From positions 8,572 to 72,571 of the forward strand of contig CAZOGU010000001.1 in assembly GCA_964579625.1 (NCBI GenBank): DNA of 64,000 bases, given 5' to 3'. Under the pieces are notes generated by a model. That model ran no database searches. It was not told where the DNA came from and was given only the letters and a program-made list of their open reading frames with translations. Shown here piece by piece: positions 28,390 through 63,125 of the stretch. Source of the stretch: an uncultured Pseudobdellovibrionaceae bacterium. GTDB lineage: Bacteria; Bdellovibrionota; Bdellovibrionia; Bdellovibrionales; JAGQZY01. Numbering within the stretch: position 1 is the first letter of the stretch; each line of letters begins with the position of its first letter. The position numbers were made by a program, and so were the translations under genes.

Positions 28390-28980
28390 TTAAAGGAAGG
28401 CTGTTCGATTCGCACCGACAAGGTTCGGATGCGTTCGCATTTTTAAACATTGCTCCTCTGTCACTTGATTCGACAGATTTGTAACATAGCCAGCCATTAA
28501 ATTAGGGCCGTAGCTCTCATCAAGGTGCTGTAGATCCCCCAAAAGATGGCCCAGCTCGTGAGCAAGAGGTTCATAAGCCTCAGCTCTTTTTTGTTTGTAT
28601 TCTGTCGAACGACTGTATTTTGAAATAAATAAAAAATGCGAGCCGGGAGCGAGTCCCGCGCTTTGATTCTCTTGAACCGAGCTTACCAAAAACAGAACCG
28701 GTCGCTGAAATTGCTCATAATATTTACGAGCCATTGGAAATGTTTCATAATCCATCGCAATCACAGAAAGTGGACTTACCTCTAAGCCGTTCAAACGAAT
28801 TTCAATTCGACATTGTGATAAAATTTGATTTGTTTTTTGCAACATTTCCGTAATTTCGGATTTATTCCATGGAGTTTGTGACTCGGTCACAACAGCCATA
28901 GATAAAGTTAAAATCGGAAGAGCCCATGCCTGACCCCTCAGCATACAAATGGCAAAAAAGATGATAATTGCTGTTTTCAA
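28390..28980 (-). CDS. secreted zinc metalloprotease-like protein (HExxH)
   Basis: Signal peptide plus AHELGHLLGDLQH. TTG start. Confidence 0.55.
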   Translation of the reverse strand: MKTAIIIFFAICMLRGQAWALPILTLSMAVVTESQTPWNKSEITEMLQKTNQILSQCRIEIRLNGLEVSPLSVIAMDYETFPMARKYYEQFQRPVLFLVSSVQENQSAGLAPGSHFLFISKYSRSTEYKQKRAEAYEPLAHELGHLLGDLQHLDESYGPNLMAGYVTNLSNQVTEEQCLKMRTHPNLVGANRTAFL

Positions 28981-29170: not shown

Positions 29171-29250
29171 TCTTTTGATTCTGCTTGGTACGGATCTTGA
29201 TAAGGAATTCATGACTGTGGTTTTAAACGCTGACGTTGATGGAGTCCAAA

Positions 29251-29955
29251 ATGAAAGTCTTAACATTCTTGTTTATTCTCATCATTCTCACCAATGGATC
29301 TACCGGTGAGGCACAAGATCTTGTAAAAACAGAAGGTCCCGTTGTCCAAACACAAAGCTGTCCTTCGGCTGAATTGTTTTCTGATGTGACTTATGAAGAT
29401 CTGCGCAGCCAGTTGGATAAAACCCTTCGAGAAAAAAATAAATCGCTGGTGTTTTTAGACTTTCGAGGTTTGCAAGCTCAGATCGATGTTTTATCAAATC
29501 ATTTGATCACCGAGGATCAGCTCACTTCCAAAGAAGCGATCACTATTTTAAAAAAGACCATCACCCATCTCGAACAACTTGATGTTTTAGTGTCTAAAGC
29601 AAAAGATGCAGCAAAATCCATTAAAGAAAATCAAGTAGTTCCGCTTGCCACTCTGACTTCTTTAAAGTCAGAGGCAGACGCTTGTAACCTCGTGTCTTCT
29701 CCTTACACAGATATTTTTAAAACACTGTCAGCGCTGAACAAGGAGCTGAACGAAGTATTGATGCTCTCTCAACAAAAAATCAATGCACAAAAAGATAAAG
29801 TCCAAGCCCTGATGAAAAAGGTAAATTCTACGGACTCAAACACTGTTACAAACCAGGCCATCTCCGAGCATTTTAATTTTATTCAAAAAAACATATTAAG
29901 CGTCACTCGCGTGTTTGAATTTGATCCCAGTGTTCTACAAGTCGCCAGCCATTAA
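29251..29955 (+). CDS. hypothetical secreted helical / coiled-coil-like protein
   Basis: Signal peptide [25 protein letters not shown] lies 6 nt upstream of ATG 29251. Confidence 0.5.
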
Positions 29956-35112: not shown

Positions 35113-35933
35113 GAAAAGTGATTTTTTCTTCTACCGCGACCACGATTTCTTTTGCCGTGCTTCTTTTGTACGTGCTGATAGCACTTGGGACGGCTTCTGG
35201 TTTGTTGGCCACTCACTTCGATCTTGTGCAAAATGATTTATCCTATCAACCTCCAAGTCGTACATTTATTTTGGGAACAGATCTTTTTGGAAGGTCTGTT
35301 CTCGAAAGATCAATGCAGGCCACACGAATTGCAATCACTGTGGGCTCGCTTTCAACACTGCTTGCGGTTTTGATCGGCGTTGTTTTAGGATCCTTGGCTG
35401 GCTACAGAGGAGGTCGCACCGACGATTTCATTGTGTGGTTTTACACCACACTCGATTCCATTCCGTATATTTTACTTCTTTCCGCCTTTGCGTTTGTTCT
35501 GGGACAAGGGCTTAATAATCTTTTTCTGGCGCTCGGATTAACCACCTGGACCACACTTTGTAAAATCGTGCGCAGTGAATTTATGAAACTAAAGCAAACA
35601 GATTTTGTCCTCGCAGCCAAGGCCCAAGGACTTCCTCAGTGGAAAATCATTTTCCAGGAAATCTTGCCAAATCTCTCCCATTTGATACTAATTCAAGCCG
35701 GTGTGATTTTTGTCTCCGTAATTAAAATCGAAGTGATCTTAAGTTACTTGGGTTTGGGCCTGGAACCCGGATCGCCCAGTTGGGGTTTAATGATCGATGA
35801 CGCCAAACAAGAAATCACCCGCGGCATCTGGTGGAACATGTTTGCCGCCACGTTCTTTATGTTCGGCTTAATCCTCTCCACTCAGTTCGCCCTAGAAGCC
35901 CTCCGCCGCCACTTTGATCGCAAATCAAAGTAA
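35103..35933 (+). CDS. ABC transporter permease (DppC/OppC-like)
   Basis: ...LGTDLFGRSVL... and ...DFVLAAKAQGLPQWKI... are typical of the family. Confidence 0.85.
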   Translation: MAMRKVIFSSTATTISFAVLLLYVLIALGTASGLLATHFDLVQNDLSYQPPSRTFILGTDLFGRSVLERSMQATRIAITVGSLSTLLAVLIGVVLGSLAGYRGGRTDDFIVWFYTTLDSIPYILLLSAFAFVLGQGLNNLFLALGLTTWTTLCKIVRSEFMKLKQTDFVLAAKAQGLPQWKIIFQEILPNLSHLILIQAGVIFVSVIKIEVILSYLGLGLEPGSPSWGLMIDDAKQEITRGIWWNMFAATFFMFGLILSTQFALEALRRHFDRKSK

Positions 35934-35997
35934 GACGCAAGTCCCTAGTTGCCCTTTGACAGACTCTCTCTTAAAATTAGAAATAGAGGGGGCCCAC

Positions 35998-37128
35998 ATG
36001 CTTCGATGGATTGTTTCGCTGGCCACGGTTTTTGTTTGTTACTCTTCTTTGGCTCAGGTCGCTCGGCCGCCGCAGTTTGTGCTTTTGGCTTTTGATGGAT
36101 CTAAGAGTCTGACGTTTTGGTTAAATTCGCGCAAGTTCGCTGCACAAAACGATGTGCGCTTTACTTATTTTATCAGCGGTGTTTATTTTCTTTCCACAGA
36201 AAATAAAGCAAATTACGTCGAACCCTCGCAAGGCGCTGGCAAAAGTGCCATTGGTTTTGGTGGACTCAAAACAGATATTCAACAGCGTCTCGATCAAGTC
36301 CGTCTCGCGAGCAATGAAGGTCATGAGATGGCGTCGCATGCCAATGCACATTTTGATGGCGCGAAATACACTCAAAAACAATGGGACAGCGAAAACAAAC
36401 AGTTCACGCAACTCATGCTCAATGCGTGGAAGCACAGTTTGATTCCGCAAAAGCAACCGTCGTGGTGGGTGGATTATTTTACGCAAAATCTAAGCTCTGA
36501 TCCCGGCATGGTCGGATTTCGCGCGCCACTTCTTGGCGTTGGAAATGGATTGTGGCCATCACTAAAAAGCAATGGCATTCTTTACGACACCAGCCGCGTA
36601 GACAAAATGGCTTACTGGCCAAAACAGATCAACGGGATTTGGAATTTTCCCCTCGCTGCACTTACTATTGTCGAAACTGGCAAAAAAACATTGAGTATGG
36701 ACTACAATTTTTATGTCGCCGACTCAAAGGGAGTCGCCGGCCCCGCTGCTGAGTATACAAATTACGAAAATCGCATGTACAAAACATATCTCGCGTATTT
36801 CGAAAACAATTATTACGGCAACCGGGCCCCCGTACACATTGGCCACCACTTTTCTCTCTGGAACGGCGGCGCTTATTGGCGTGCAATGCAGCGTTTTGCT
36901 CAAACTGTTTGCTCTAAACCCGAAGTCGTCTGTGGAACTTATAAAGAACTTCTTGGCTTTGTTAAAAATAATAAAGACCACCTCGCGACATTTCAAAACT
37001 CTGAGTTTGTAAAACTCGAAAGTTCTTTTAAACCCTCGCACGTCATTCCCGAACTCACAGACAAAGAGTTAGCTGAACTACGAGCTACGCTACCCAATCA
37101 CTTTCAAGCTCATGAGGAAGAACCTTAA
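35998..37128 (+). CDS. secreted polysaccharide deacetylase (NodB-homology)-like protein
   Basis: Signal peptide MLRWIVSLATVFVCYSSLAQ. Motifs LAFDGS and GHEMASHANAH. AGAGGGGG lies upstream of ATG 35998. Confidence 0.5.
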   Translation: MLRWIVSLATVFVCYSSLAQVARPPQFVLLAFDGSKSLTFWLNSRKFAAQNDVRFTYFISGVYFLSTENKANYVEPSQGAGKSAIGFGGLKTDIQQRLDQVRLASNEGHEMASHANAHFDGAKYTQKQWDSENKQFTQLMLNAWKHSLIPQKQPSWWVDYFTQNLSSDPGMVGFRAPLLGVGNGLWPSLKSNGILYDTSRVDKMAYWPKQINGIWNFPLAALTIVETGKKTLSMDYNFYVADSKGVAGPAAEYTNYENRMYKTYLAYFENNYYGNRAPVHIGHHFSLWNGGAYWRAMQRFAQTVCSKPEVVCGTYKELLGFVKNNKDHLATFQNSEFVKLESSFKPSHVIPELTDKELAELRATLPNHFQAHEEEP

Positions 37129-39709: not shown

Positions 39710-41125
39710 ATGGCTTTAAAAAGAAAATATGGTGTTTATAGTTTAATGGTCCTGTTTTTGGGATTGGTTTCCTGCTTCAAAGACAAAGAGGTTGTGTATC
39801 AACCCGTGCGCTCGGAGACCGAAAATATTGGCTCCCGAGACAGTCAAAAACGCATGAAATGGGCAAAAGACATCCGCTCCCTCGAACTCGGTGGCGAATT
39901 GGTGATTGATCTTCTTGAGCAACAAAACTTTCAAACCAATCCCATTGTTGTTCGTGTGCAGTCGTGGTGCCAGACAGATTCCACCAAAGGATCTTTGGTC
40001 AATGATGTGTATTTTCAGAATCAATTTTCGATTCCTATTCTTAAAATTTTATCACGCGAGGCTTTGCTCTCCACAAGTTCGTCACCTCTCACCTGTGATC
40101 TTACACTCACTCTCACCGAGTCCAATACCTCATCTGTATCGATCTATCCGCTGAAATCCATCACGATCACCAATTCCGCGAGTTTCAATAATATTGCTCT
40201 TTTTACAGAAACTAAAACGGCAGATATCTACGAGCAGATCAAAACAGAGTCACTCCCTGATGGAGAGGCGTGGACACTGGCCTGTTCAGACTTTCAAAAA
40301 ATATTACGCCATCATTCTGAAGTGACGCTCGAAAAATTGATGGCCTCTTCGGAAACAAATTATTCAATCTGGAAAAGTTCTCAACAAACCTGTCGTCTCT
40401 TGATCGAAAGTAGCGAACAGGTGTTTCTGTCACGACCCATGGTTTTGGCTTTCGAACCTCAGCCTTTAATGATCGAAGCCGAACTTCAAAACATGGAAAC
40501 TGTGTTTGGCCCGGTAGAACCACATCCTGTTTTAACTCTTCAAGTGATGAACCCAAACTCTTATGAAGTTAAAATAAAAGTGGACAAACTTCAGTCCTCC
40601 CAATTTATTTTTAGACCTGTCTACGTTGGAGGAATCAATCGCGGACTATTGGGGAACAAATACAAATCCGTTTTAAAATGGTCGTTTGAAGAGTCGATGC
40701 TGCAAAAAACAATCGAAAAGGATCAATGGGTTTTTACACTTCCACCGCAACAAGCGATTTTCCTCAATGCGGACTATGCCGAAAGTTATGACTGTGGTGG
40801 TCTTCGTAAACCGGTCGAAAAATTAACTCCATTTGGAGCCGCTCCGAAAAAAGAACATTACCCTCTCAACCGTCCCGCCTTTGCTGGAATCAAATATGGA
40901 TTTTCTTTTGGAACACAGCTTCTCACCCACGTGGCAGACAAAACTTGGACTGCGACTGACCTTCGGGCGCACACGTTCCCTCAACTCAAAGAAGACCCAA
41001 CACCTTTTTGGGATATGAATTTTCCTGCCGTTAAAAAGTTTCATCGGATTCAACATGCGGCTAAAAGCAATAAAGAATTTATCAAATACATCACAGAGTC
41101 TTACGATCTGTGCAAAAAGCTCTAA
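39710..41125 (+). CDS. hypothetical lipoprotein
   Basis: Lipobox ...FLGLVSC. No family recognised. Confidence 0.5.
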   Translation: MALKRKYGVYSLMVLFLGLVSCFKDKEVVYQPVRSETENIGSRDSQKRMKWAKDIRSLELGGELVIDLLEQQNFQTNPIVVRVQSWCQTDSTKGSLVNDVYFQNQFSIPILKILSREALLSTSSSPLTCDLTLTLTESNTSSVSIYPLKSITITNSASFNNIALFTETKTADIYEQIKTESLPDGEAWTLACSDFQKILRHHSEVTLEKLMASSETNYSIWKSSQQTCRLLIESSEQVFLSRPMVLAFEPQPLMIEAELQNMETVFGPVEPHPVLTLQVMNPNSYEVKIKVDKLQSSQFIFRPVYVGGINRGLLGNKYKSVLKWSFEESMLQKTIEKDQWVFTLPPQQAIFLNADYAESYDCGGLRKPVEKLTPFGAAPKKEHYPLNRPAFAGIKYGFSFGTQLLTHVADKTWTATDLRAHTFPQLKEDPTPFWDMNFPAVKKFHRIQHAAKSNKEFIKYITESYDLCKKL

Positions 41126-50434: not shown

Positions 50435-51418
50435 ATGAAATTCATAGTATTCACAATGACTACACTCATTTCACTTAATACTTTTGCCGCACTTGTAATG
50501 TATACAGATCGTCCTGCCGCGACGACACAGATTATCGCCTCTGCTTTTAAAGCAAAAACGGGCGCTGATCTTGATATCATCGAAATGAAAAGTTCCGATC
50601 TCGTCAATCGTCTCAATGCCGAAGGCGCTCAGTCGAATGGTGCCGATGTTATCTTTGTAAGAGATTTAGTTTATCTTAACGAAATCAATGCTGGCGGATT
50701 TTTTCAACCCTACAACAGCGCGGCATCTCAAAAAGTAAATGGAGTGATGAAAACAAAAAACTGGGTGGGCGTGACCTATCGTGCACGTACTGTTGTTTAC
50801 AACACTCTTTCCGTGAACCCTGCTACTTTAAAAAACTATTCCGATCTTGCAAATCCTGAGTGGGCCGGAAGACTCTGCGTTCGCGTAGCGAACTCTTCGT
50901 ACAATCAAGCTTTGATTGCAAATTTAATTGCTAACGCTGGAGAGCAAAAAGCCACTTCGGTGATCGATGGATGGGTTCAAAATTTTGCCGTTAATCCCAT
51001 CGCAGATGACACTGCTGTTCTTAAGGCCATCGCGGATGGAACGTGCGCTGTAGGCGTTGTTAATACATACTACTTAGGACGCTATCTTTCCTCCGACCCA
51101 CAAGCTCCGCTCGGCGTTGTTTTTGTTGGTGAAGGTGGACAAGGAACTCACACCAATGGCTCGGGCATCGGTATTTCTTTGGCCTCTGAACAACAAGCTC
51201 TGGCCAACCAGTTGATTGAGGTCATGCTTTCTCCTGATGTTCAAAAACAAATTGTTGGATCCACTTTCGAATTCCCGGCAAACACAACTGTCGCTCACCC
51301 GAATAAGACTGTTGGTTCTTGGATGGGTTTTAAAATCAACGGCACAAGCTGGAGCCAATTGACACCAGACCTGATTGAGGAAAGTACAAATCTCATGAAG
51401 AGTGTTGGTTACAAATAG
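50435..51418 (+). CDS. periplasmic Fe3+-type ABC substrate-binding protein (FbpA/AfuA-like)
   Basis: Signal peptide, ...LVMYTDRPAA...FKAKTGADLDII..., and ...GADVIFVRD...GGFFQPY, typical of iron(III) binding proteins. Confidence 0.6.
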   Translation: MKFIVFTMTTLISLNTFAALVMYTDRPAATTQIIASAFKAKTGADLDIIEMKSSDLVNRLNAEGAQSNGADVIFVRDLVYLNEINAGGFFQPYNSAASQKVNGVMKTKNWVGVTYRARTVVYNTLSVNPATLKNYSDLANPEWAGRLCVRVANSSYNQALIANLIANAGEQKATSVIDGWVQNFAVNPIADDTAVLKAIADGTCAVGVVNTYYLGRYLSSDPQAPLGVVFVGEGGQGTHTNGSGIGISLASEQQALANQLIEVMLSPDVQKQIVGSTFEFPANTTVAHPNKTVGSWMGFKINGTSWSQLTPDLIEESTNLMKSVGYK

Positions 51419-51426
51419 GATTTTTG

Positions 51427-52635
51427 ATGTTGCTTGGGCCTCGTGTTCCTCTCATTCTCGCTCTCACTCTCTGCTGCTCCTGTTCTGACTATGGCAAACA
51501 AGAAACAGAGGTCAAAGCTCGTCAGTCAACGCCAGAGGTGCAACTCGCTAACTTTGGCCTTTCTTTGGCGCAGAAAAATGCGAGTGATTTTTCTCAGGCT
51601 GCAAATCAATTAACGATTTCTCTGCAAAATCTTTGTTCTCATGTCGAAGTGCCAGGGGCCTTGGTATCTGTGACATATGCTTATGAAAAGTTGGTGGAAA
51701 AATTTTATCTGCTCCAAGGATTTGCCATTGGGTTACAAAAAGCTGATACCGACCAGTCTCCGCTCAATGCCATTCACTATCGCACCCTCAATCGATGTCT
51801 TGTTGATACGCTCGTTGTAGAAACAAAAAACAAACAACCTCTTTCCCCTACGCATCCCTCGGTTTTGGGACTCTATGCAATCGAGTATTTGCTTTTCGAA
51901 AAAACATTGGTGTCCCATTGCAACATCAAAGCCTACCCGCAGATGGAAATCTGGAATCAAATTCCCGATACAGAAAAAAAACGCGATCGCTGCCTGCACG
52001 CTCAAACTCTCGCAAAACAGATCAACCATTTCGCACAAAAAATAAAAAACGATTGGGATCCACAGTCCGCCAGCTACGAACAGAATTTAAATACCTTGGA
52101 ATATACAAAATCAGAAACTTTAGCTTTAAAAAATATGGTACAGGCACTCTCGGCTCTTGAAAAAGTGAAAGACTATGATTTGGGCAAGCCTTTGGGGCTC
52201 AACAGTCTTTGCACCAACGAATCTGGGAAGTGTCCTGAGGATGTGCAACACCCCTATTCGCAATTGAGCCTCGTAGCTGTTATCTCTTCACTTAAAGCCT
52301 TTCAGAATTTTTTTAACGGAACGGATCCTGAAGATTTTTCTGTGAGCGCTTATTTACGGGCCAAGAAACAATACGATTTGGATCTTAGAATCAATACCCT
52401 CATTTCACAAGCGCTTGCAACTTCCATCAAACTTAATCAAGTCAGCACACTCTCCCAACTTGTGGAAAATATGAATCCAATATCTTGTAAAAAAACAACT
52501 CTTTCTGAACCGAATGAGCCCGTTTGTTTCTTGTTTAAGCAGGTGGAACACATTACAGACGTTTACAAGTCCGATCTGCTCACGTTTCTTTCTCTAGAGA
52601 TCGACCAATCGATTCCTCAAGGTGACAATGATTAA
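51427..52635 (+). CDS. imelysin-like (peptidase M75 / EfeO-IrpA-like) lipoprotein
   Basis: Lipobox-like LTLCCSC. The motif ...LGLYAIEYLLFE resembles the imelysin G-x-H-x-x-E-Y-L-L-W motif, with Tyr in place of His. Confidence 0.5.
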   Translation: MLLGPRVPLILALTLCCSCSDYGKQETEVKARQSTPEVQLANFGLSLAQKNASDFSQAANQLTISLQNLCSHVEVPGALVSVTYAYEKLVEKFYLLQGFAIGLQKADTDQSPLNAIHYRTLNRCLVDTLVVETKNKQPLSPTHPSVLGLYAIEYLLFEKTLVSHCNIKAYPQMEIWNQIPDTEKKRDRCLHAQTLAKQINHFAQKIKNDWDPQSASYEQNLNTLEYTKSETLALKNMVQALSALEKVKDYDLGKPLGLNSLCTNESGKCPEDVQHPYSQLSLVAVISSLKAFQNFFNGTDPEDFSVSAYLRAKKQYDLDLRINTLISQALATSIKLNQVSTLSQLVENMNPISCKKTTLSEPNEPVCFLFKQVEHITDVYKSDLLTFLSLEIDQSIPQGDND

Positions 52636-54796
52636 TATTGGACTTCTTCTCTTGAATTTATTTTTAAGCCCCACTTGGGCGGAGGACGCAGACGGAGCTG
52701 AAACCGTGGAACTCGATCGTATTTTTGTATCTGGCAATATGCAGGAAAAGTTACAAAATTTTACGGCCCCGGATGAAGTGAGCAAAAAAGATCTAGAAAA
52801 AAAGAAACAAACTGATGTCATGCGAATTTTAAAATCCGTTTCTGGAACTTATGTTCGTGAAGAGGACGGGCAAGGGTTACGCCCCAACATCGGACTTCGT
52901 GGTACGCATCCTGATCGCAGTAAAAAAGTTGTTCTGATGGAAGATGAAGTGCTTATCAGTCCGGCGCCCTACTCGGCTCCAGCGGCCTATTTTACGCCCT
53001 CCATGCTGACCACTGAGAGCTTACAAGTGTACAAGGGTTTTGCGTCCGTTCCTTGGGGACCGAACTCGATTGGTGGCAGCCTCAATTATATCACCAAACA
53101 AATACCCAAAAACGGTTATCAAAAAATAGATGCCTCTTATGGCAGCTTTAACACTCGATTATTTAGCGCCGAAGCTGGCGACTCCGTTTTGGATAAGTAT
53201 GGCTTTCTTCTTTTGGCTTCGCGCATGGAAACGGATGGCTTTAAAGTTCTTCCTCGAGATCAGAACACGGGATTTATAAAAAACGATATTCTCTTAAAAG
53301 CTTCGTGGAATATTTCTGCCAAACAGTATCTAAAAACCAAAATCGGTTTTTCAACCGAAGACTCCAATGAAACTTATGTTGGGATTACATCGACTGATTT
53401 TTCTGAGGACGCTTATCAAAGATATGCTGCTTCGGAGCTAGATGATATGATGTGGACTCACCAGCGCTTTCAAATTGAGCACGGTTTACAAATAGGCGAA
53501 TCCAGCTTTTTAAAAACATTGGCCTATCACAATCGTTTTGAAAGAACCTGGTTTCGCGTTGATGGTTTTGCCAATAAAGATATATCTATTCGCGATGTTC
53601 TCAATAATCCGACAAGTACAAACTCTTATTATTATCAAATTCTCAAAGGGCAGCGCAACTCTTCGACTCTTGCAGGAAAGGATGGCAACGTTCTTCTCGC
53701 GAACAATGAACGTCATTTTCTTTCGAGTGGCCTGCAGACAAATCTCACCGTGAATAGCGATTTAGGCTCTGCTAAAAATGAACTGATTTGGGGCGCACGT
53801 CTTCACAACGATTCCATCGAACGCAACCACACCCGGCAAGAATCGGAAATGATCAATGGGTCGATGAACCTGACGGGGAATATCTCGCAAGGGACTCTTG
53901 ATAAAAACGAAGCCTTGGCGGCTAGCACATTTATCGAAAACAATCTGACCATGGGCGATTGGAAGTGGACCCTTGTTGGTCGTTACGAAGATATTCGTTT
54001 TCGCAATCTCAATCGCACAAACAACCAAGAAAATCGCACGCGTGACCAATTTTTTGTTCCAGGCACCGGGCTTTCTTACAAATTGAATCAGGTCCTTGCC
54101 GCGAGAGGCAGCATAAATCGCGCTCTCAATGTGGCCGGCCTTGGAACTTTTGGTCGTAATGAGAGAGAAAGCGCCGTGAATTACGAAGTGGGTTTGCGCT
54201 ACGGAGGAACCCACTTCAACACCGACGCCACTTTGTTTTTTAATGATTACGATAACATCACTGGAAGCTGTACCGCTTCGACAGGTTGCTTGGCCGATGC
54301 CGATACACAATTTAACGGCGGTGCGGCCCGTGTTTACGGGCTTGAACTCTCGGCAAGCACACTTCAGCACTATCGCGGCTTTCAATTCCCCATGCAAACG
54401 TCTCTCACTTTGATGAGCGCCGAGTTTGCAAATACCTTTCGGTCCGAAAGCCCCGAGTGGGGTGACGGTGTCATTACCTCAGGCTCACGTCTTCCGTATA
54501 TTCCTCGAGTTCAGTACAATGTGAGTGTGGGTGTAGATTATAAAAAATGGCAAAACAATCTCAACTTTTCCTACCAAGGCGATGTGGTGGATCAAAGTCT
54601 TTCCACGAATCAAGTCCGCATCGGTGGGTTTGGGGTTGTGGATTTGGTGAGTCGTTTTAATTATTCGAAGACAGGCTCGTTGTATCTGAAAGCAGACAAT
54701 CTATTCGCTGTGGAATACATTGTTGCCGCCCGCCCATTTGGGATGCGTCCCGGAAAACCGCAGGCCTTTGGCGTAGGTCTTACGCAGACTTTTTAA
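52628..54796 (+). CDS. TonB-dependent receptor
   Basis: Signal peptide, a plug domain (...DVMRILKSVSGTYVRE...GLRPNIGLRG...), a long beta-barrel, and C-terminus ...GVGLTQTF. Confidence 0.85.
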   Translation: MINIGLLLLNLFLSPTWAEDADGAETVELDRIFVSGNMQEKLQNFTAPDEVSKKDLEKKKQTDVMRILKSVSGTYVREEDGQGLRPNIGLRGTHPDRSKKVVLMEDEVLISPAPYSAPAAYFTPSMLTTESLQVYKGFASVPWGPNSIGGSLNYITKQIPKNGYQKIDASYGSFNTRLFSAEAGDSVLDKYGFLLLASRMETDGFKVLPRDQNTGFIKNDILLKASWNISAKQYLKTKIGFSTEDSNETYVGITSTDFSEDAYQRYAASELDDMMWTHQRFQIEHGLQIGESSFLKTLAYHNRFERTWFRVDGFANKDISIRDVLNNPTSTNSYYYQILKGQRNSSTLAGKDGNVLLANNERHFLSSGLQTNLTVNSDLGSAKNELIWGARLHNDSIERNHTRQESEMINGSMNLTGNISQGTLDKNEALAASTFIENNLTMGDWKWTLVGRYEDIRFRNLNRTNNQENRTRDQFFVPGTGLSYKLNQVLAARGSINRALNVAGLGTFGRNERESAVNYEVGLRYGGTHFNTDATLFFNDYDNITGSCTASTGCLADADTQFNGGAARVYGLELSASTLQHYRGFQFPMQTSLTLMSAEFANTFRSESPEWGDGVITSGSRLPYIPRVQYNVSVGVDYKKWQNNLNFSYQGDVVDQSLSTNQVRIGGFGVVDLVSRFNYSKTGSLYLKADNLFAVEYIVAARPFGMRPGKPQAFGVGLTQTF

Positions 54797-54850: not shown

Positions 54851-56194
54851 ATGCACTCGTCCGCTCTTAAACAAATGACTCATTTGTTCATCTTGCAGAT
54901 TCTGTTAGTGGCTTCTTATGTTTTTCATCAAACAGAGTCTTGGGATATTCGCCCGCTGGCCCTCTTTTCCGTGGTTGCTCTTTTTACCCTTGTAAGGCTC
55001 CCAAAAACTCAACTTCAGTTTGCCTTTATTTCTATCGTTGCACTTTTTTTGTATGCTGAAAAATTTCCCAATCTTGCCAATCACTCCAATCTGTCTTTTT
55101 TTATTTTTCTGTTAACAATTCCGCTCACCCTCGGGCAATTTCGCCCCTTGAGTGGTGAGCACTACAACCAATTTTTGAAAACAGTTCGATGGCTTGCTTT
55201 TATCACTTATTTTTTTGCTGCTTTTCACAAATTCAATAGTGATTTTTTTAACCCAGAGGTCAGCTGTGCCAATGACAAGATGGGTGAATACTTAGCGCTT
55301 CTTCCCAATTCCCTGAGTTTTCTTAAGACCACGCTTCAACAACTGATGCCCGCTCTTGGCTTTTTAACAGAGGCTGTGATCCCTTTGTGCTTGGTTGTTC
55401 CGCGCTTAAGACGATTTGGATTTCTATTTGTTTGTGGGCTCCACTTTTTGCTCGCGCCTTTGGGATTTATCGATTTTTCGAGCCTAGCTATGGTTTTGGC
55501 ATGGAGTTTTGTTGTGCCAGAAAAAATCAACACCGAATTGGCTCTAAGGCATGTGCAGTGGTTGACCTATGCTGTTTTGGCGTTGGTTTGCGGCTTGGGA
55601 CTCTTTCGCTGGGAAGATCAAACCGAAGATTTCGCAGCCTTTGAAGGCATTGCCTTTGCTGTGATTTACACACCCTTTATCTACACCCACATGTGGCCGA
55701 ACATCTATCGAGGTCGACTGGAACTGCCAAAGTGGTCATTTGGTCTCGCATTTCTTTTCTTTATGTTTGCCTATGGTTTTTCTAATTACTTAGGACTTCG
55801 GACGGCGGGAACTTTCTCGATGTTTAGCAATTTAAAAACCGAAGGTACCGTCTCCAATCACTACTTGCTCTCCTCAAATCCATTTAAGATTTTTTCGTTT
55901 CAAGAAAACGTCGTTGAAGTGATCGCGGTGGATGAACGCATTGAGGGCTTTTATCGAAAGATGCCAAAAGTCGGCCAGCTCATTCCACGTGTGGAGTTCT
56001 CGCGCATTCTCGATCGCTTGCGCGAGGAAAATCGACTACGTGCTCATCTGGAAGTAATTTACCAGGGTGTCACTTACAAAACAGAAAAAGCGGGCTATGA
56101 TCCCACCTTTGATTTCCAAGTCCCCGCCTGGCAAAAAAAACTATTTAAATTCCGCGCCATCCCAAAAGAAGGTCCTCAGCACTGCGCATGGTAA
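54851..56194 (+). CDS. polytopic integral membrane protein of unknown function (possibly HTTM-like)
   Basis: About 9-10 hydrophobic segments followed by a soluble C-terminal region of about 100 aa. The family assignment is uncertain. Confidence 0.4.
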   Translation: MHSSALKQMTHLFILQILLVASYVFHQTESWDIRPLALFSVVALFTLVRLPKTQLQFAFISIVALFLYAEKFPNLANHSNLSFFIFLLTIPLTLGQFRPLSGEHYNQFLKTVRWLAFITYFFAAFHKFNSDFFNPEVSCANDKMGEYLALLPNSLSFLKTTLQQLMPALGFLTEAVIPLCLVVPRLRRFGFLFVCGLHFLLAPLGFIDFSSLAMVLAWSFVVPEKINTELALRHVQWLTYAVLALVCGLGLFRWEDQTEDFAAFEGIAFAVIYTPFIYTHMWPNIYRGRLELPKWSFGLAFLFFMFAYGFSNYLGLRTAGTFSMFSNLKTEGTVSNHYLLSSNPFKIFSFQENVVEVIAVDERIEGFYRKMPKVGQLIPRVEFSRILDRLREENRLRAHLEVIYQGVTYKTEKAGYDPTFDFQVPAWQKKLFKFRAIPKEGPQHCAW

Positions 56195-56357: not shown

Positions 56358-57410
56358 CTAAAGGTTGAGTCTTTTCAACAGAACCATATCTGCCAGTACA
56401 GTCCATGTCATTGCTTCAACAACGGGTACAGCACGAGGGACGATGCATGGGTCATGGCGTCCCTTTTTTGCGACGTCGAGGATCGACGACGTGGGCTTGA
56501 AGGCTGTTCGAAATGAAAGGGGCTCTCCAGTTGTAATTCCTCCGCGTTGGCCGCCGTAGAGGGAGTTTTTTTGCGAATGATGAACTTTTGTTCCTGGCTG
56601 TTTTGTCATATCGAAGCCGCCGCCGATTTCAAATCCGCAGGTGGCGCCGATACTCATCATGGCAGAGGCGAGCGCATTTTTAAATTTGTAAAAGATCGGC
56701 TCACCCAATCCACTTGGTAACCCATCTGCCCAAACTTCGACGACACCACCGTAACTTTCGCCTTGTTGTTTGGCTTTGAGTAGAACATCCGCGATATCAA
56801 AGCGGGCTGTGGGAAATCGAGTGCTCCACTCATCGACAGTTTGCAAACCGTTCGTCCACTTTGATTGAAGCACTGTGCGCTCGTCTTCATTCAATTGCAT
56901 TTCGCCAATAGAATCTACGAATCCTAAAACTTTTAGCTCCGGATGATTTTTTTGAACAAAACTTTTAGCCACGGCGCCTGCAATCACGCGGCAGAGAGTT
57001 TCGCGTCCACTGGATCGTCCACCGCCTCGTGGATCGGAAATACCAAATTTTTGTTTCCACACATCATCGGCATGGCCGGCTCGCGGTTGCTCTGCAATCT
57101 TTTGATAATCTTGCGAGCGTTGATCTTTATTTTTAACCACACACGCGATGGGTGTTCCTAAAGTAAGGCCCTCATAAACACCAGAGAGAATTTCGACACG
57201 ATCTTCTTCCGCCCTCGAGGAGACAAGAATTTGTTGCGACGTTTGATCTTTTTGACCAGGGCGGCGACGATTCAACTCAGCCTGAATGATCGCTTCGGAA
57301 AGCGGAACTCCTGCGGGACAGCCATCAATCACAACGCCGAGGCCTTCACCATGGCTTTCACCAAACGTCGTCCACCGAAAGAGATGACCAAAACTATTCA
57401 CTCCACTCAT
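56358..57410 (-). CDS. aroC: chorismate synthase
   Basis: ...FGESHG...GVVIDGCPAG... and ...GRHDPCIVPRAVPV.... Confidence 0.95.
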   Translation of the reverse strand: MSGVNSFGHLFRWTTFGESHGEGLGVVIDGCPAGVPLSEAIIQAELNRRRPGQKDQTSQQILVSSRAEEDRVEILSGVYEGLTLGTPIACVVKNKDQRSQDYQKIAEQPRAGHADDVWKQKFGISDPRGGGRSSGRETLCRVIAGAVAKSFVQKNHPELKVLGFVDSIGEMQLNEDERTVLQSKWTNGLQTVDEWSTRFPTARFDIADVLLKAKQQGESYGGVVEVWADGLPSGLGEPIFYKFKNALASAMMSIGATCGFEIGGGFDMTKQPGTKVHHSQKNSLYGGQRGGITTGEPLSFRTAFKPTSSILDVAKKGRHDPCIVPRAVPVVEAMTWTVLADMVLLKRLNL

Positions 57411-59145
57411 ACTTGCTCCATAGGTTTTGCTGTTCTCTCGCTTGGGTCACGAACATTGTTTCTCCCGAAATATATTTTGCACCTTTTTGAAAAGCATACA
57501 GCTTTGCTGGCGAATCCGCGCGATAGTTTAAATCCATTACGAGACGAGGCTTCCAAGTCTCGGGAAGCATTTCTACACTTTGCCAACCTGCCGACCAAAT
57601 TAAAACATCAATCTGCGGTTTTTCAACACTGCCCTCGCGCGGTTTTCCGCTGCGCGCAGAGTAGTAAGACGCTCCTTGCAATGCGAGCGAAGGTAAAATG
57701 CCACCACCGCCCCACACAACCACGTTTTGAGTCCCTAAATCCACTTCTGCTTGCTTTGTCATTTCGGCAAAACCTTGCGCGTCAGTGGAAAATCCCTGCC
57801 ACCCTCCACGAGAGTCGCGCACCAAGGTGTTGAGAGGACGAGCCGCACCGACATATTCTGCCGCCCAGCTCTTGAGAGGACTCGTTACGGCCGCCGCGAC
57901 AAGCCCACACTTTTGTAGAAAATCAAAACCGCCATCGCGAAGGTCTTCTTCTTCGATTTCGACGGGGTAAAGACTCATTCCTTTTTGCGCAAAAAAATCA
58001 GCATGAAATGCGGGCGACCAGCTTTGCAAGACAGGGTTTCCTAAAACAGCTGAAAAATATTTTGCATGCACGGGCTGAAACCATTGTGCTAAAGTCGGTT
58101 GATCGAGCGCAGAGCCAAGCCCATCGCGCCAAAAATTAAGTTTCATTTTATCTTTGAGCCAATGACGGTACCAAACCCACCGACCATTCTCCGAACGCGG
58201 GAGAAAAAATCGAGTTTGAGGAGAACGCATCATCCATTCATGCCCTAAACGCAGCTGTAAAAAGCTTTTCACCATGGGCGCCCACTTGATCGGGCGCTCT
58301 ACCCCTTCAACCGTTTCGAAGGCATCATAAAAGTTTTCTTCCTCACTGTGAAAGGACAAAAGGAGTTTATTCATGTCGATCTGGAAAGGAATTTCACCAA
58401 AATCCAGTGGCCAATCCACACGAGCCACCGATTGAACAAAACGGGATGTCGATTCTACCTTTTCAAAATCACGAAAGCTCAAAAGCAGATTTTTCGCAGG
58501 AATTTGAGTGATGGCACTTTGAATTTGATCTTGGGTTAAAAGATCATCTCGAAGTTCTAAAAAATCGGGAGAAAATGCGACCAGCGCCTCAAGACGTTGT
58601 CTTTGATAATGCTCTGGCAATACGGTCACAACTCCGCCCGCTCGTTCCTTTGAAAAATACGCACGTTCGCCGGGATGCGTGTCATACACACCCTCCGGGA
58701 GAACCAGCTCCTCACCGCCCAGAGAGTGAAAACGTTGTTCGCGAGCTTCAAAAAGTGGCATTGGAATTTTTAAATCCGAGGACGTTGGATTTAAAGTCGG
58801 ACGATCAAAAAAAATATTTTTCGACACATCCCAATCTCTTTTCACCCAGAGCCGGCGTACATCTTCGGGTAGGGCTCCTTCAAAACCACCACCCACGGCA
58901 ATAAACACAGGGCACGATTCTCCGCGAGAGCGAGTCATAAGTTGGGAGAACACCTGTTTCTCGCTTTCGCGAAAGAAGGGCTCCCCTTTTTGACGGAAAA
59001 GTTCTGGAATCGGACCCATTTTTTTTTCGATTTCTTCATCAAGACAAAAACAAAGAGCTGTAGGAATGTATTTTTTAAGTCGGCGAAGCAATGAGCTTTT
59101 GCCAACTCCACGATGACCATAGAGAACTGTGATCTTTGGATTCAT
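57394..59145 (-). CDS. trifunctional fusion: shikimate kinase + type I 3-dehydroquinate dehydratase-like + shikimate dehydrogenase (AroK-AroD-AroE)
   Basis: The N-terminus has GHRGVGKSSL...DEEIE...GEPFFRE...VGGG (shikimate kinase). The middle has ...FLELRDD...LLSFHSEE...IKWAPMV..., a type I dehydroquinase pattern with His and Lys. The C-terminus has ...VLGNPVLQSWSPAFH...AAVTSPLK...NTLV...GFSTDAQG...VWGGGG (AroE). ATG 59145 overlaps the aroA TGA, and GGAGGG lies 7 nt upstream. Confidence 0.75.
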   Translation of the reverse strand: MNPKITVLYGHRGVGKSSLLRRLKKYIPTALCFCLDEEIEKKMGPIPELFRQKGEPFFRESEKQVFSQLMTRSRGESCPVFIAVGGGFEGALPEDVRRLWVKRDWDVSKNIFFDRPTLNPTSSDLKIPMPLFEAREQRFHSLGGEELVLPEGVYDTHPGERAYFSKERAGGVVTVLPEHYQRQRLEALVAFSPDFLELRDDLLTQDQIQSAITQIPAKNLLLSFRDFEKVESTSRFVQSVARVDWPLDFGEIPFQIDMNKLLLSFHSEEENFYDAFETVEGVERPIKWAPMVKSFLQLRLGHEWMMRSPQTRFFLPRSENGRWVWYRHWLKDKMKLNFWRDGLGSALDQPTLAQWFQPVHAKYFSAVLGNPVLQSWSPAFHADFFAQKGMSLYPVEIEEEDLRDGGFDFLQKCGLVAAAVTSPLKSWAAEYVGAARPLNTLVRDSRGGWQGFSTDAQGFAEMTKQAEVDLGTQNVVVWGGGGILPSLALQGASYYSARSGKPREGSVEKPQIDVLIWSAGWQSVEMLPETWKPRLVMDLNYRADSPAKLYAFQKGAKYISGETMFVTQAREQQNLWSKYEWSE

Positions 59146-60308
59146 CACAGCCCTCCTGTCGCTTGCCAAAACTGAGGAAAACTTTTGTCAACAACCATTG
59201 GGTGAAGAATATTGAGTCGTGCTCCATAAAGATTCGCTACACGAGCCGCCATGGCCATTCGATGATCTTGATCTGGATTAAAATCTCCATTGGACTCAAA
59301 CGGCGATTCGTCTCCGTGTATCACCAACTGGTCTGTCATTAATTCTGTTTTTCGCCCAAGACGTTTTAAAAGTTGAATGGTGTTTGTCAGGCGATCTGAT
59401 TCTTTGTGGGAAAGATGATCGAGTCCCGTCAAAAATGATTTTCCCTGCGCCCGCGCGCAAAGAGTCGCCAACACAGGAAATAGATCCGGCGTGTTTCTGA
59501 GATTGTAAGTCAGAGGATTTAGATGCTCCGTCTTTTCAATCAACAAATCCTGCTCATCACGAGAATAACGGACTCCCATCCGTTTGAACAAAGTTAAAAA
59601 CGCGATGTCGGGCTGTTGAGAGTCAAACGGAAAATTGAGAATGCGAGCTTGGCCGTTTTGAACAGCACAACTGGCGAGTGCAAAACAGGAACTCACATCC
59701 GCTTCCACAGTGTAGTTGAGCTGTCGCGGTTTTTGTTGAGCGCGAATCAACCAACTTTTTTCGTCAGCAATGATGTCCATACCAAACCGTCGCACGAGAT
59801 CTAAAGTCATTGCTAAATAAGCTTCCGAAACCTGACGACCGGTAAACTCCATGGTTAGATCGTTTGGTAAATTCCAGGCATTGAGTAAAATGGACGAAGC
59901 AAATTGACTAGAGACACTGGTGTTCACTCTGATTTCAGAACGAGGCTTCCAACCTGTGGACTGTAAAATCCATCGCCGATCTTGCACATCCACGCTCACG
60001 TCCCATTGATCCAGCAAAGCGATGAGCTCCTCTTGCGGGCGCGATAAAAGCCTTTCCGAGCCAGAAACGATCCACGTTCCAGGTTCGCGCGAAAGACGTA
60101 AAATTAAAAACCGAAAAGCTGTGCCCGCGTCGCCACAATGGAATTCTTTGTGACCATTAAAAAAATCGGTAAAGGCTTTTTGCAAAACCAGAATGTCTTT
60201 GGATTGGCTGCTAAAATCCAACTGAATCTGCGATTCGTAAGACTGAATGATCAGTGCGCGGTTGACTAAGGATTTTGAGGATTCAATGGTTCCCGAAAAC
60301 TCAAACAT
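59145..60308 (-). CDS. aroA: 3-phosphoshikimate 1-carboxyvinyltransferase (EPSP synthase)
   Basis: ...GTIESSKSLVNRALI... and EPSPS-like length. The start is ambiguous: ATG 60308 gives an 8-nt overlap with aroB, while ATG 60350 gives a more typical N-terminal length. Confidence 0.85.
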   Translation of the reverse strand: MFEFSGTIESSKSLVNRALIIQSYESQIQLDFSSQSKDILVLQKAFTDFFNGHKEFHCGDAGTAFRFLILRLSREPGTWIVSGSERLLSRPQEELIALLDQWDVSVDVQDRRWILQSTGWKPRSEIRVNTSVSSQFASSILLNAWNLPNDLTMEFTGRQVSEAYLAMTLDLVRRFGMDIIADEKSWLIRAQQKPRQLNYTVEADVSSCFALASCAVQNGQARILNFPFDSQQPDIAFLTLFKRMGVRYSRDEQDLLIEKTEHLNPLTYNLRNTPDLFPVLATLCARAQGKSFLTGLDHLSHKESDRLTNTIQLLKRLGRKTELMTDQLVIHGDESPFESNGDFNPDQDHRMAMAARVANLYGARLNILHPMVVDKSFPQFWQATGGL

Positions 60309-61344
60309 CCTGTGCCCAACCTTGTCTTTGGGCTTCAAAGACCAAGTCATGAATCGAAACCGGAATGACTTTGGCCGTTCCGATTTCTGTGAGAAAAACA
60401 AAATCTATCTGCGCTTGCGCGTTCATTTTTTTATCTTGTGCCACGAGCTTTGTAACCTGTGTCACAGGCATAGGCTGAAACGCGCTTTTATCCAGCCAGC
60501 AGCTCAGTCCTAGCTCGGTAAAATGCTTAAAAATGAGTTCACGTTGTGCTTCTGACAAAAGACCAATCTTTGCACTCCATTCGATGGCAAAGTAGAGTCC
60601 CTGTAAAACACTCTCGCCATGAGAGACTTGATAATACGACTCGATCACATGTCCCAGCGTATGTCCGAGATTTAAAATTTTTCTAACACCTTTGGTTTCA
60701 TAAGGATCTTGCATCACGATTTGATTTTTGGCCTGAATGGCTTTTTCGAGGTGACGCCAAATCAATTCCCCTAAAGAAACTTCGCTATGCAATGTGAGCT
60801 CCTGAAAGAACGACGGCTGATGAATCAAAGAGATTTTGATCATTTCGCTTAAACCTTCACGCGCCCGTTCTTGATTTTGCATAAATAGAAGGTCTTTGAC
60901 CAAGATGATATGCTCGGCTGGATAAAATGTTCCCACCTGGTTTTTAACTGACTTCACGTTGAGCGCGGTCTTCCCGCCATGGGCCGAATCAATAGCCGAT
61001 AGCCATGTTGTTGGACATTGAACCAAACGTAAACCGCGTTTTAAGATCGAAGCCAAAAATCCGCTAAAGTCTCCTACAGAGCCACCACCACACGATACAA
61101 TTCGACTCTGCCGACTGAGTGGTTGATCCCAAAGCTCCACCACATTTTCGACGTGCACGGCAAAGGTTGATAAACTTTTAAGCGACTCACCCGCTTGCAC
61201 TCGATACACGTAACGAAAGTTTTTACTGAGACCGGGCATTTGCTGGTCCACAAGCTCATCGATGATCAGAAGATCTTTTTCTAAATCAAAAGAAGGCAAT
61301 GGAAAGTGTTCAGAGAAGGAAATTTGGCTCGCAAAATTATTCAT
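60301..61344 (-). CDS. aroB: 3-dehydroquinate synthase
   Basis: ...[11 protein letters not shown]..., ...[17 protein letters not shown]..., and ...[12 protein letters not shown].... ATG 61344 overlaps the ung TGA. Confidence 0.9.
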
Positions 61345-62060
61345 GCAGGATCCAATCTCCAATCTATGGGAGAAAAACCTTTTTCTTTGAGGAACGCATT
61401 GGTTTTAGAAAAGTGTTTGCATCCCAAAAATCCACGATGCGCCGAAAGTGGTGACGGATGCACCGATTCTAAGACGAGATGTTTTTGGCGATTGATAAAC
61501 TCACCTTTTTTTTGCGCGTAGCTGCCCCAGAGTAAAAACACCACGGGATTGGATTGTTCGTTGATAATGCGAATCACTTGATCGGTGAATCGCTCCCAGC
61601 CGCGAGCGCGATGGGATGCGGCCATTCCGTCTTGCACGGTGAGAACACTGTTAAGAAGTAAAACGCCTTGCTGAGCCCAATAGGATAAACACCCATGTTG
61701 CGGAATGGGCAGTTTTAAATCTTGATGAATTTCTTTAAAAATATTTTTAAGCGACGGCGGTGGCGGCACACCTTTTTGAACAGAGAAACAAAGTCCGTGA
61801 GCTTGCCCGGGACCATGATAGGGATCTTGGCCCAAAATCACCACACGCACTTTTTCGAGCGGCGTGTGTTCGAAGGCCGCGAAGTACTCTGGCGCTTTTG
61901 GATATATGATTTTGTTGCTCTTGAGTTCGCTGGCCAAAAAGGCGCGAAGCTCTTTCATGTACGTTTGTTCAAATTCGCTTTGCAAAGCTTTTTTCCAACT
62001 TGGCTCAAGCTTGATGGAATCGGTGGATGTGGCGGATGAGGTTTGCATACAACCTGTCAT
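61341..62060 (-). CDS. ung: uracil-DNA glycosylase
   Basis: ...[22 protein letters not shown]... and ...HPSPLSA.... Confidence 0.95.
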
Positions 62061-62325: not shown

Positions 62326-62676
62326 ATGTTTGCTATGAACCTCAATAAGCTCAACGTCAATGAGGCTGAGTTAAAGGCTTTTATTTACCAACAGCTTAAC
62401 GAAATTCAGCCCTTTGTTGGTGAGTCCGAAGTAGGCATAAAAATGACCTACACGCCCGAAAATCAATTCTTGGTCCGTATGCAAGCCTCGCACGAAGCTG
62501 GTGATGTGGAAGTTGAAGGCACTAACGAAGATGTGTATTCCGCCCTCTCACAAGCCAAGCATGCCTTGATTCGCACTTTTTCGTCTTTGGATAACACCGA
62601 ATCTGAAGAAGAGACGGATGAAAAACGTGATGTGGAAATTCAATCTGTTCTTACGAAGAAAGATGTGAAGCATTAA
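62326..62676 (+). CDS. HPF/RaiA (S30AE)-like small protein with an acidic C-terminal tail
   Basis: AAGGAGGG RBS. The pattern ...NVNEAELKAFIYQQLNEIQPFV...VGIKMTY...FLVRMQA...GTNEDVYSALSQAKHALIRTF fits the S30AE fold. Confidence 0.45.
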   Translation: MFAMNLNKLNVNEAELKAFIYQQLNEIQPFVGESEVGIKMTYTPENQFLVRMQASHEAGDVEVEGTNEDVYSALSQAKHALIRTFSSLDNTESEEETDEKRDVEIQSVLTKKDVKH

Positions 62677-62759: not shown

Positions 62760-63125
62760 ATGACAAAAATCTCCCTGTTCTTAAGCCTCATTACTTTTTT
62801 TACATTGAATGCCTTTGCCAACACCGAAGGGCTGACGGCGCAGCAAATCCAGCAAACAATTCAGAAATATATGGGCAATGTGCTCAATTGCTACGATCTC
62901 GAAATAAAGAAAAATCCTGAACTGAATGCGGGTCGCGTAGTTTTGTCATTCGATGTTGAGCTTGATGGCAAGATTTTGAATTCTGCTGTGACCAAAACGA
63001 CTTTACATCATAAAAAAGTGGAAGCTTGTATTGTAGAAAATAGTCGAACTTGGATCTTTCCAAAACCCACAGGAAAAAAGCCGGTTCAAGTTAAATACCC
63101 CTTTGAGTTTAAAAAATCGAAATAA
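62760..63125 (+). CDS. secreted AgmX/PglI C-terminal domain protein (TonB-C-like fold)
   Basis: Signal peptide. ...IQKYMGNVLNCYDLEIKKNPELNAGRVVLSFDVELDGKILNSAV...VEACIVENSRTWIFPKP...VKYPFEF. Confidence 0.6.
   Translation: MTKISLFLSLITFFTLNAFANTEGLTAQQIQQTIQKYMGNVLNCYDLEIKKNPELNAGRVVLSFDVELDGKILNSAVTKTTLHHKKVEACIVENSRTWIFPKPTGKKPVQVKYPFEFKKSK

Follow-up and report, generated by a model that had tools for sequence, protein, structure and literature searches.

A Bdellovibrionales shikimate gene cluster with AROM-like order and a predicted trifunctional AroK-AroD-AroE fusion protein

Introduction

AROM (Aro1), which occurs in fungi and protists, is a textbook eukaryotic multi-enzyme, and to our knowledge there is no settled answer to why its five shikimate enzymes are fused in an order that does not follow the pathway. 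This order is 3-dehydroquinate synthase (DHQS), 5-enolpyruvylshikimate 3-phosphate (EPSP) synthase (EPSPS), shikimate kinase (SK), 3-dehydroquinate dehydratase (dehydroquinase, DHQase) and shikimate dehydrogenase (SDH) (PMC6851490). Other known fusions are the plant DHQ-SDH protein (2gpt/2o7s) and bacterial AroDE (NF006802), both with the DHQase amino-terminal to the SDH, and the bacterial AroK-AroB proteins (NF010556, NF010627), which include the kinase. Here we analyzed a 64,000-nucleotide stretch of DNA (hereafter, the window) from a contig of an uncultured Pseudobdellovibrionaceae bacterium (CAZOGU010000001.1), which carries on its minus strand the genes ung, aroB and aroA, a single 583-amino-acid open reading frame (ORF), and aroC. 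As in AROM (6hqv, 7u5s, 7tbv), the product of this ORF has SK, type I DHQase and SDH in the same order on one chain, and the separate aroB and aroA genes come in the same succession as their counterparts at the AROM N terminus. Shikimate-pathway multi-enzymes are a known kind of protein, of which a bacterial kinase-dehydroquinase-dehydrogenase fusion with a dehydroquinase that Pfam does not see appears to be a new form.

Overall, we consider it likely that ung-aroB-aroA-aroKDE-aroC forms a translationally coupled operon of five genes with a trifunctional fusion, ancestral in Bdellovibrionales and parallel to AROM.

Results and Discussion

The 583-residue protein combines three shikimate-pathway domains

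Gene identities were assigned with Pfam and NCBIfam on an ORF listing of positions 54-64 kb. A first-pass annotation of this DNA had described the five ORFs in the order and on the strand given above, all overlapping or abutting, and both domain databases agree with it (Table 1). Likewise, all the motifs it had quoted for the long ORF (GHRGVGKSS, DEEIE, GGG, ELRDD, SFH, IKWAPMV, SWSP, VTSPLK, NTL, TDAQG and GGGG) were found in the translation. Residue conservation was then counted over 256 family members, with 31-75% identity to the window protein, the denominators being the members that have a residue at the given position.

In the kinase domain the Walker A motif GHRGVGKSS is present, and the family profile matches solved shikimate kinases at 50-58 bits. 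Conservation is nearly complete at Lys16 (247/248), Asp36 (246/247) and Arg59 (249/251), and G85/G87, R115 and R135 are kept in at least 247 of about 250 relatives. At the other end of the protein, the dehydrogenase scores 62 bits against TIGR00507 of NCBIfam, under the cutoff of 200, and the family profile aligns with AroE proteins of known structure from end to end (1nvt, E = 7.7e-22; 2hk9). Lys425 and Asp455 are each conserved in 250 of 251 members, S375 and N439 each in at least 250 of 251-254, and Q568 in 245 of 246; within the WGGGG loop, G479 is found in 251/251 and G480-G482 in 238-242 of 250.

As a single sequence, the dehydrogenase part matches YdiB quinate/shikimate dehydrogenases best among solved structures (1npd, E = 3e-6), so that the fusion could alternatively serve quinate/shikimate catabolism, its dehydrogenase being akin to YdiB and its dehydroquinase catabolic. 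The family profile, however, ranks the biosynthetic AroE over YdiB (81 vs 56 bits), and a cluster, conserved across the order, in which aroB, aroA and aroC flank a fusion containing a shikimate kinase fits biosynthesis alone; we regard a catabolic function as very improbable.

The AlphaFold2 model of the whole protein has a predicted local distance difference test (pLDDT) score of 93.6 and a predicted template modelling (TM) score of 0.91, and is confident across the domain boundaries. In Foldseek, its top matches were AROM (6hqv) and the SK+DHQase+SDH fragment of C. albicans (7tbv), with E ~1e-18 over ~720 columns that cover all three domains, followed by Arabidopsis DHQ-SDH. With the latter, the predicted orientation of the dehydroquinase and dehydrogenase domains superposes (TM 0.60 over ~500 columns), and the family profile runs unbroken over the DHQase/SDH junction of 2gpt (profile positions 261-593). 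Differently from DHQ-SDH proteins, the window protein has an added N-terminal kinase and a compact DHQase of ~195 amino acids, unseen by Pfam. Against NF006802 it scores 40.6 bits, where the cutoff is 598, and the SDH part alone aligns. The AroK-AroB proteins, which are also bacterial shikimate-pathway fusions, have two domains with other partners and another order, and their models match the kinase part alone, and weakly (21.7 and 17.6 bits). We conclude that the 583-amino-acid protein is a trifunctional AroK-AroD-AroE enzyme, the activity of each domain being one that we infer from sequence and predicted structure.

The middle domain resembles a divergent type I dehydroquinase

Judged by profile, predicted fold and catalytic residues, the middle domain is a type I dehydroquinase, too divergent for routine annotation. 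Two sets of sequences were used, namely A1, which aligns 41 full-length relatives, and A2, a 25-sequence profile restricted to the middle region. In A1, the invariant residues of the middle region are E197, R199, D201, R225, H266, K287 and Q349, which is the pattern of a type I dehydroquinase. Searched against solved structures, A2 matched the type I dehydroquinase of S. pyogenes (2ocz_A, E = 1.8e-5, profile positions 7-142), the other match being noise (E = 1.6), and paired ELRDD with EWRAD, SFR with TLR, SxH with SYH, and K-AP with KIAV. Moreover, the AlphaFold2 model of the domain alone reached a pLDDT of 95.7, and Foldseek placed an archaeal dehydroquinase first (2ox1_A, E = 6e-6, TM 0.63, root-mean-square deviation (rmsd) 3.7 Å) and Arabidopsis DHQ-SDH (2o7s) second; AROM (6hqv) came at rank 5 (E = 0.029), behind two unrelated folds, and most of the remaining matches were generic triosephosphate isomerase (TIM) barrels with far weaker scores. 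With the monofunctional AroD proteins (2ocz of S. pyogenes, 2ox1 of Archaeoglobus, and the E. coli enzyme) the domain thus shares the TIM barrel, with the Lys/His dyad and the Glu/Arg substrate-binding residues aligned. It differs from them in having ~20% identity, in the missing Pfam match and in its context, as among the matches listed the window-type domain always lies between a kinase and a dehydrogenase.

Several points weigh against this assignment. Pfam gave no DHquinase_I (PF01487) match on window-protein residues 165-362, even at E ≤ 10, and among 25 relatives it gave weak matches in two alone (best E 0.0055); on the same region NCBIfam yielded no usable match. An hhalign comparison of A2 with the single sequence of E. 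coli AroD, taken for residue numbering only, set R225, H266 and K287 on R82, H143 and K170, and was weak (E = 0.043, probability 1.2%). In addition, the DHQase domain of C. albicans Aro1 is inactive, with a type II enzyme as backup (PMC9074039), which means that a fused domain of this kind can be dead. Finally, the searches for another dehydroquinase covered the window and the 80 related loci described below, a small part of a genome.

The first-pass annotation had stated that, if Pfam did not recognize a dehydroquinase in the middle region, this would be only a linker. The Pfam match is indeed absent, but the linker reading fails on the alignment of A2 with 2ocz_A, on the AlphaFold and Foldseek results and on the invariant catalytic residues. 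A related alternative is that the region, divergent as it is and invisible to Pfam, is a dead scaffold or linker derived from a DHQase, the dehydration being left to an independent AroD or AroQ encoded at another place in the genome, as in the Candida precedent. In the inactive Candida domains, however, the catalytic dyad is substituted (PMC9074039), whereas here His266 is found in 256/256 and Lys287 in 255/256 family members, and E197, R199, D201 and R225 are invariant. Furthermore, tblastn with an M. tuberculosis AroQ probe, a weak and local test, gave no credible match in either the window or the 80 loci, and no dehydroquinase was present among the scanned window ORFs of at least 150 amino acids. 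A dead middle region is therefore quite improbable in our view. Instead, the strict conservation of His266 and Lys287 argues that the middle dehydroquinase domain is catalytically active.

The fusion and its gene order are typical of Bdellovibrionales

To place the fusion among its relatives, databases of proteins and genomes were searched. The protein database search returned 331 relatives, nearly all of 520-650 amino acids, and the available source names point to Bdellovibrionales, Bdellovibrionota and Oligoflexia. A scan of species-representative genomes gave 127 relatives, from which 80 loci were kept for synteny. All 80 encode the fusion, including complete genomes of cultured Bdellovibrio bacteriovorus and Pseudobdellovibrio, and the titles of 76 of them name Bdellovibrionales or relatives; the exceptions are three generic titles ('Proteobacteria bacterium', 'Oligoflexia bacterium' and 'bacterium') and one Streptomyces griseus. 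The latter, CALQIT020000008.1, is titled 'MAG: Streptomyces griseus' and has a typical Bdellovibrionales aroB-aroA-fusion-aroC arrangement; it is probably mislabelled or mis-binned. The fusion is therefore typical of Bdellovibrionales and no peculiarity of the window genome. Its nearest genome representative is merely 55% identical, and the lineage of the window is thus poorly sampled within the order.

The middle-domain profile was also run against 1.84 billion cluster representatives (clusters at 50% identity), with 495 matches at E ≤ 1e-3 and 469 at E ≤ 1e-10. The 150 of these matches that were listed are mostly proteins of 520-650 amino acids with the middle domain at ~165-365. This distribution suggests that the middle domain constitutes a closed family, which barely detects other dehydroquinases.

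These data also bear on whether errors of assembly or sequencing produced the long ORF by merging three originally distinct genes, aroK, aroD and aroE, as the first-pass annotation had allowed for by naming a frameshift. Nothing was found in favor of this explanation. We rejected it and assign it next to no chance, since the same unbroken architecture occurs in the 331 database proteins, the 495 clusters and the 80 loci, complete genomes of cultured Bdellovibrio among them, and the AlphaFold model is confident over the domain boundaries.

When the five window proteins were searched by tblastn on the 80 loci, the order aroB-aroA-fusion-aroC was found in 54, with or without ung in the flank, and truncated loci among the 80 agree with it. 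The junctions are tight across loci, with median extrapolated spacings of -1, -13 and -7 nucleotides (nt). The gene ung lies upstream in 25 of the 80 loci and abuts aroB in several, so that its leading place in the operon is a case of conserved synteny, with no functional link to the pathway seen. Two related loci (L020 and L048) read aroB-fusion-aroC-aroA, with aroA moved downstream of aroC; although common, the AROM-like order thus does not extend to the whole group.

One further step of fusion was observed. Six proteins of 923-975 amino acids, P0074, P0096, P0110 and P0228 among them, have an EPSP synthase fused ahead of the kinase, dehydroquinase and dehydrogenase (Pfam). One such gene lies on a 3.26-Mb contig of a Pseudobdellovibrionaceae genome (locus L081, 5001-7907; GCA_019637915.1) and encodes a 968-amino-acid AroA-K-D-E protein, with ung and aroB upstream and aroC downstream; a gene for DAHP synthase is close by on the opposite strand. 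As the four-domain proteins are mutually closest relatives, they form one derived clade. No aroB-aroA fusion was found in the 80 loci.

Overlapping start and stop codons link the genes of the cluster

The junctions of the cluster were read directly in the sequence. The ung stop and the aroB start share ATGA at 61341-61344, as had been reported in the first-pass annotation, which was also correct about the other two overlaps described here: aroB and aroA overlap by 8 nt, with the aroA ATG before the aroB stop (ATGTTTGA), and the fusion ORF and aroC share 17 nt, the aroC ATG preceding the fusion stop (ATGAGTGGAGTGAATAG). It was mistaken about the junction between aroA and the fusion, which it had called ATGA as well. 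This junction (AGGAGGGCTGTGATGAAT) reads TGATG, a 1-nt overlap in which the aroA stop TGA (59147-59145) and the fusion ATG (59145-59143) have a single base in common; a 4-nt GTGA overlap arises only if GTG at 59148 is taken as the start. An AGGAGG Shine-Dalgarno box is found 6 nt upstream of the fusion start. Altogether, the overlapping stops and starts suggest translational coupling of the five genes.

Regarding the separate genes of the cluster, the aroB product scores 251 bits against TIGR01357 (cutoff 305) and the aroA product 241 bits against TIGR01356 (cutoff 287). Both fall below the NCBIfam equivalog cutoffs and are therefore divergent.

The resemblance to AROM most likely reflects parallel fusion

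The aroB, aroA, then kinase-dehydroquinase-dehydrogenase order of the window and of 54 of the 80 loci matches the published AROM order (PMC6851490), as the first-pass annotation had pointed out. The chance of an identical order is 1/120 for five units, or 1/24 if the dehydroquinase and dehydrogenase are counted as one pre-existing module. Since the shared order is both non-pathway and improbable, the resemblance is real and needs explaining.

We then compared each domain and gene with solved structures, where fungal AROM was the form of AROM available. With the kinase family profile, bacterial 2pt5 scores 58 bits and AROM 42.9, a figure to which the opening residues of the following domain contribute. 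The dehydrogenase family profile gives 81 bits for archaeal 1nvt vs 49.6 for AROM. For the separate genes, window AroB scores 124 bits against bacterial 3okf and 95 against AROM (7u5s), and window AroA scores 106-114 bits against bacterial class I enzymes (5xwb, 114) and 68 against AROM. With A2, no AROM chain was found among solved structures at E ≤ 10. Thus, for every domain or gene scored, bacterial or archaeal single enzymes rank above fungal AROM.

One explanation of the shared order would be common ancestry, in which AROM derives from a Bdellovibrionales-type operon or fusion in an early eukaryote, or in which bacteria took AROM and split it. Several observations point in this direction: the improbability of an identical order, the subclade with four of the five domains in the same order on one chain (EPSPS-SK-DHQase-SDH), the family profile, which passes without a break from the kinase to the beginning of the DHQase of C. 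albicans Aro1, and the leading place of AROM structures in the whole-model Foldseek search. The low odds of a chance match count against independent origins, as does the fact that independence rests on score rankings in which AROM is represented by fungal proteins. Nevertheless, the prokaryotic single enzymes score higher throughout, and by fold the AROM dehydroquinase falls under the archaeal and plant enzymes, the window domain being far more divergent than that of AROM. The predicted arrangement of the domains is also unlike AROM (TM ~0.25 and rmsd ~19 Å over 720 columns). Moreover, AROM has five domains, while the window protein has three and its relatives at most four; the four-domain form belongs to a derived subclade and is not ancestral, and in none of the loci examined is aroB part of a fusion. 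Taken together, these results make common ancestry unlikely. We hold it to be decidedly unlikely, in particular, that the non-pathway order of AROM was no eukaryotic invention but goes back, by descent or by exchange, to an operon or fusion of the Bdellovibrionales type, with the three- and four-domain proteins of these predatory bacteria as living intermediates of AROM.

The higher scores of prokaryotic enzymes, the different geometry and the derived position of the four-domain form are most simply read as stepwise fusion within a conserved operon, in parallel to AROM. Hence, a parallel fusion that is independent of AROM, and not an ancestor of it, is the most likely origin of the protein. 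The first-pass annotation had described the locus as an intermediate or parallel state to AROM: the parallel part fits the data, but the intermediate part does not, as all domains score nearer to prokaryotic single enzymes, and the special link to the origin of AROM that it had raised finds no support. The group offers a staged bacterial parallel to AROM, with the order present in the operon, a three-domain fusion throughout and a four-domain protein in one subclade.

Proposed pathway role, and consequences for annotation

Under the operon model that we favor, the cluster would cover steps 2-7 of the shikimate pathway, taking 3-dehydroquinate to chorismate. In the central type I barrel, Lys287 would form the Schiff base and His266 act as general base in converting 3-dehydroquinate to 3-dehydroshikimate; the C-terminal dehydrogenase, predicted to be of the nicotinamide adenine dinucleotide phosphate (NADP) type, would then reduce this to shikimate with Lys425 and Asp455, and the N-terminal P-loop kinase would phosphorylate shikimate with Lys16, Asp36 and Arg59. 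AroA and AroC would complete the pathway after the kinase step. Start/stop overlaps and fusion may together provide equal amounts of enzyme (1:1:1 for steps 3, 4 and 5) and keep consecutive active sites near each other. The arrangement would be ancestral to Bdellovibrionales and have arisen independently of AROM, with one subclade additionally fusing aroA.

Both the kinetic benefit of fusion and the independence from AROM are points that we infer. In C. albicans Aro1 no structural features join the active sites, and its authors suggested that no substrate is exchanged between them (PMC9074039); therefore, a claim of channelling for the fusion would need direct kinetic evidence. In this regard, the three- and four-domain proteins are natural and genetically tractable stages for testing the effects of fusion on flux, stoichiometry and stability.

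In public databases, relatives of the fusion are named 'hypothetical protein', 'shikimate kinase', 'shikimate 5-dehydrogenase' (alone or with 'shikimate kinase') or 'shikimate synthase', and a dehydroquinase is mentioned in none of the source annotations examined. Because the dehydroquinase domain is invisible to Pfam, pathways reconstructed automatically for Bdellovibrio and its relatives may show a false gap at step 3. A full-text literature search retrieved no description of the fusion, with thin coverage of subscription journals, where an earlier mention is possible; co-occurrences of 'Bdellovibrio' and 'AROM' turned out to be unrelated targets of the Critical Assessment of Structure Prediction (CASP).

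Features and surroundings of the cluster

The features of the cluster are listed in Table 1.

Table 1. Genes, predicted domains and catalytic codons of the cluster (positions in the window).
Feature	Position	Strand	Basis or remark
ung, uracil-DNA glycosylase	61341-62060	-	NCBIfam NF003589, 361.8 bits vs cutoff 223; Pfam UDG; first gene of the cluster
aroB, 3-dehydroquinate synthase (step 2)	60301-61344	-	347 amino acids from ATG at 61344; Pfam DHQ_synthase and DHQS_C
aroA, EPSP synthase (step 6)	59145-60308	-	387 amino acids from ATG at 60308; Pfam EPSP_synthase, E = 9e-54
Fusion ORF (aroKDE)	57394-59145	-	583 amino acids from ATG, 591 if an upstream TTG is the start; Pfam SKI and Shikimate_dh_N
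Predicted shikimate kinase domain (step 5), fusion residues 1-165	58651-59145	-	Pfam SKI, 35.5 bits vs cutoff 22.1
Predicted type I 3-dehydroquinate dehydratase domain (step 3), fusion residues 166-359	58069-58650	-	Profile, fold and catalytic residues
His266 codon	58348-58350	-	
Lys287 codon	58285-58287	-	
Predicted shikimate dehydrogenase domain (step 4), fusion residues 360-583 and stop	57394-58068	-	Pfam Shikimate_dh_N, 27.0 bits, exactly the cutoff
aroC, chorismate synthase (step 7)	56358-57410	-	NCBIfam NF003793, 355.9 bits vs cutoff 321; Pfam Chorismate_synt, E = 1e-105

A scan for promoters gave 10 promoter-like sites vs 6.2 +/- 2.6 in shuffled controls, which is not clearly above them, and one for terminators gave 8 terminator-like sites vs 8.1, with no excess; given these counts, neither element was assigned. 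The top sigma-70-like match of the region (TTCACA-17-TATGAT, 10/12) lies at 58324-58352 (minus strand), within the fusion ORF and just upstream of the His266 codon, and is likely a chance occurrence, as the scan overall was not clearly over the shuffled controls. No Rfam match was obtained for the whole window at the gathering threshold, and no riboswitch or leader RNA was detected.

At one edge of the cluster, a 447-amino-acid ORF with many hydrophobic stretches (54851-56194, plus strand) is convergent with aroC; it matches no Pfam family at E ≤ 0.001. At the other edge, two plus-strand ORFs are divergent from ung: one of 116 amino acids with an acidic C-terminus (62326-62676), which has no Pfam match, and one of 121 amino acids (62760-63125), which matches TonB_C weakly (E = 4e-4) and does not reach the cutoff. 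Farther away, the ORFs at 35914-37128 (plus), 39710-41125 (plus), 28390-28980 (minus) and 29236-29955 (plus), of 404, 471, 196 and 239 amino acids, respectively, have no Pfam family at E ≤ 1e-4. Finally, positions 50435-54796 (plus strand) encode a solute-binding protein, an imelysin (Peptidase_M75) and a TonB-dependent receptor with a Plug domain, by appearance an iron/metal uptake cluster.

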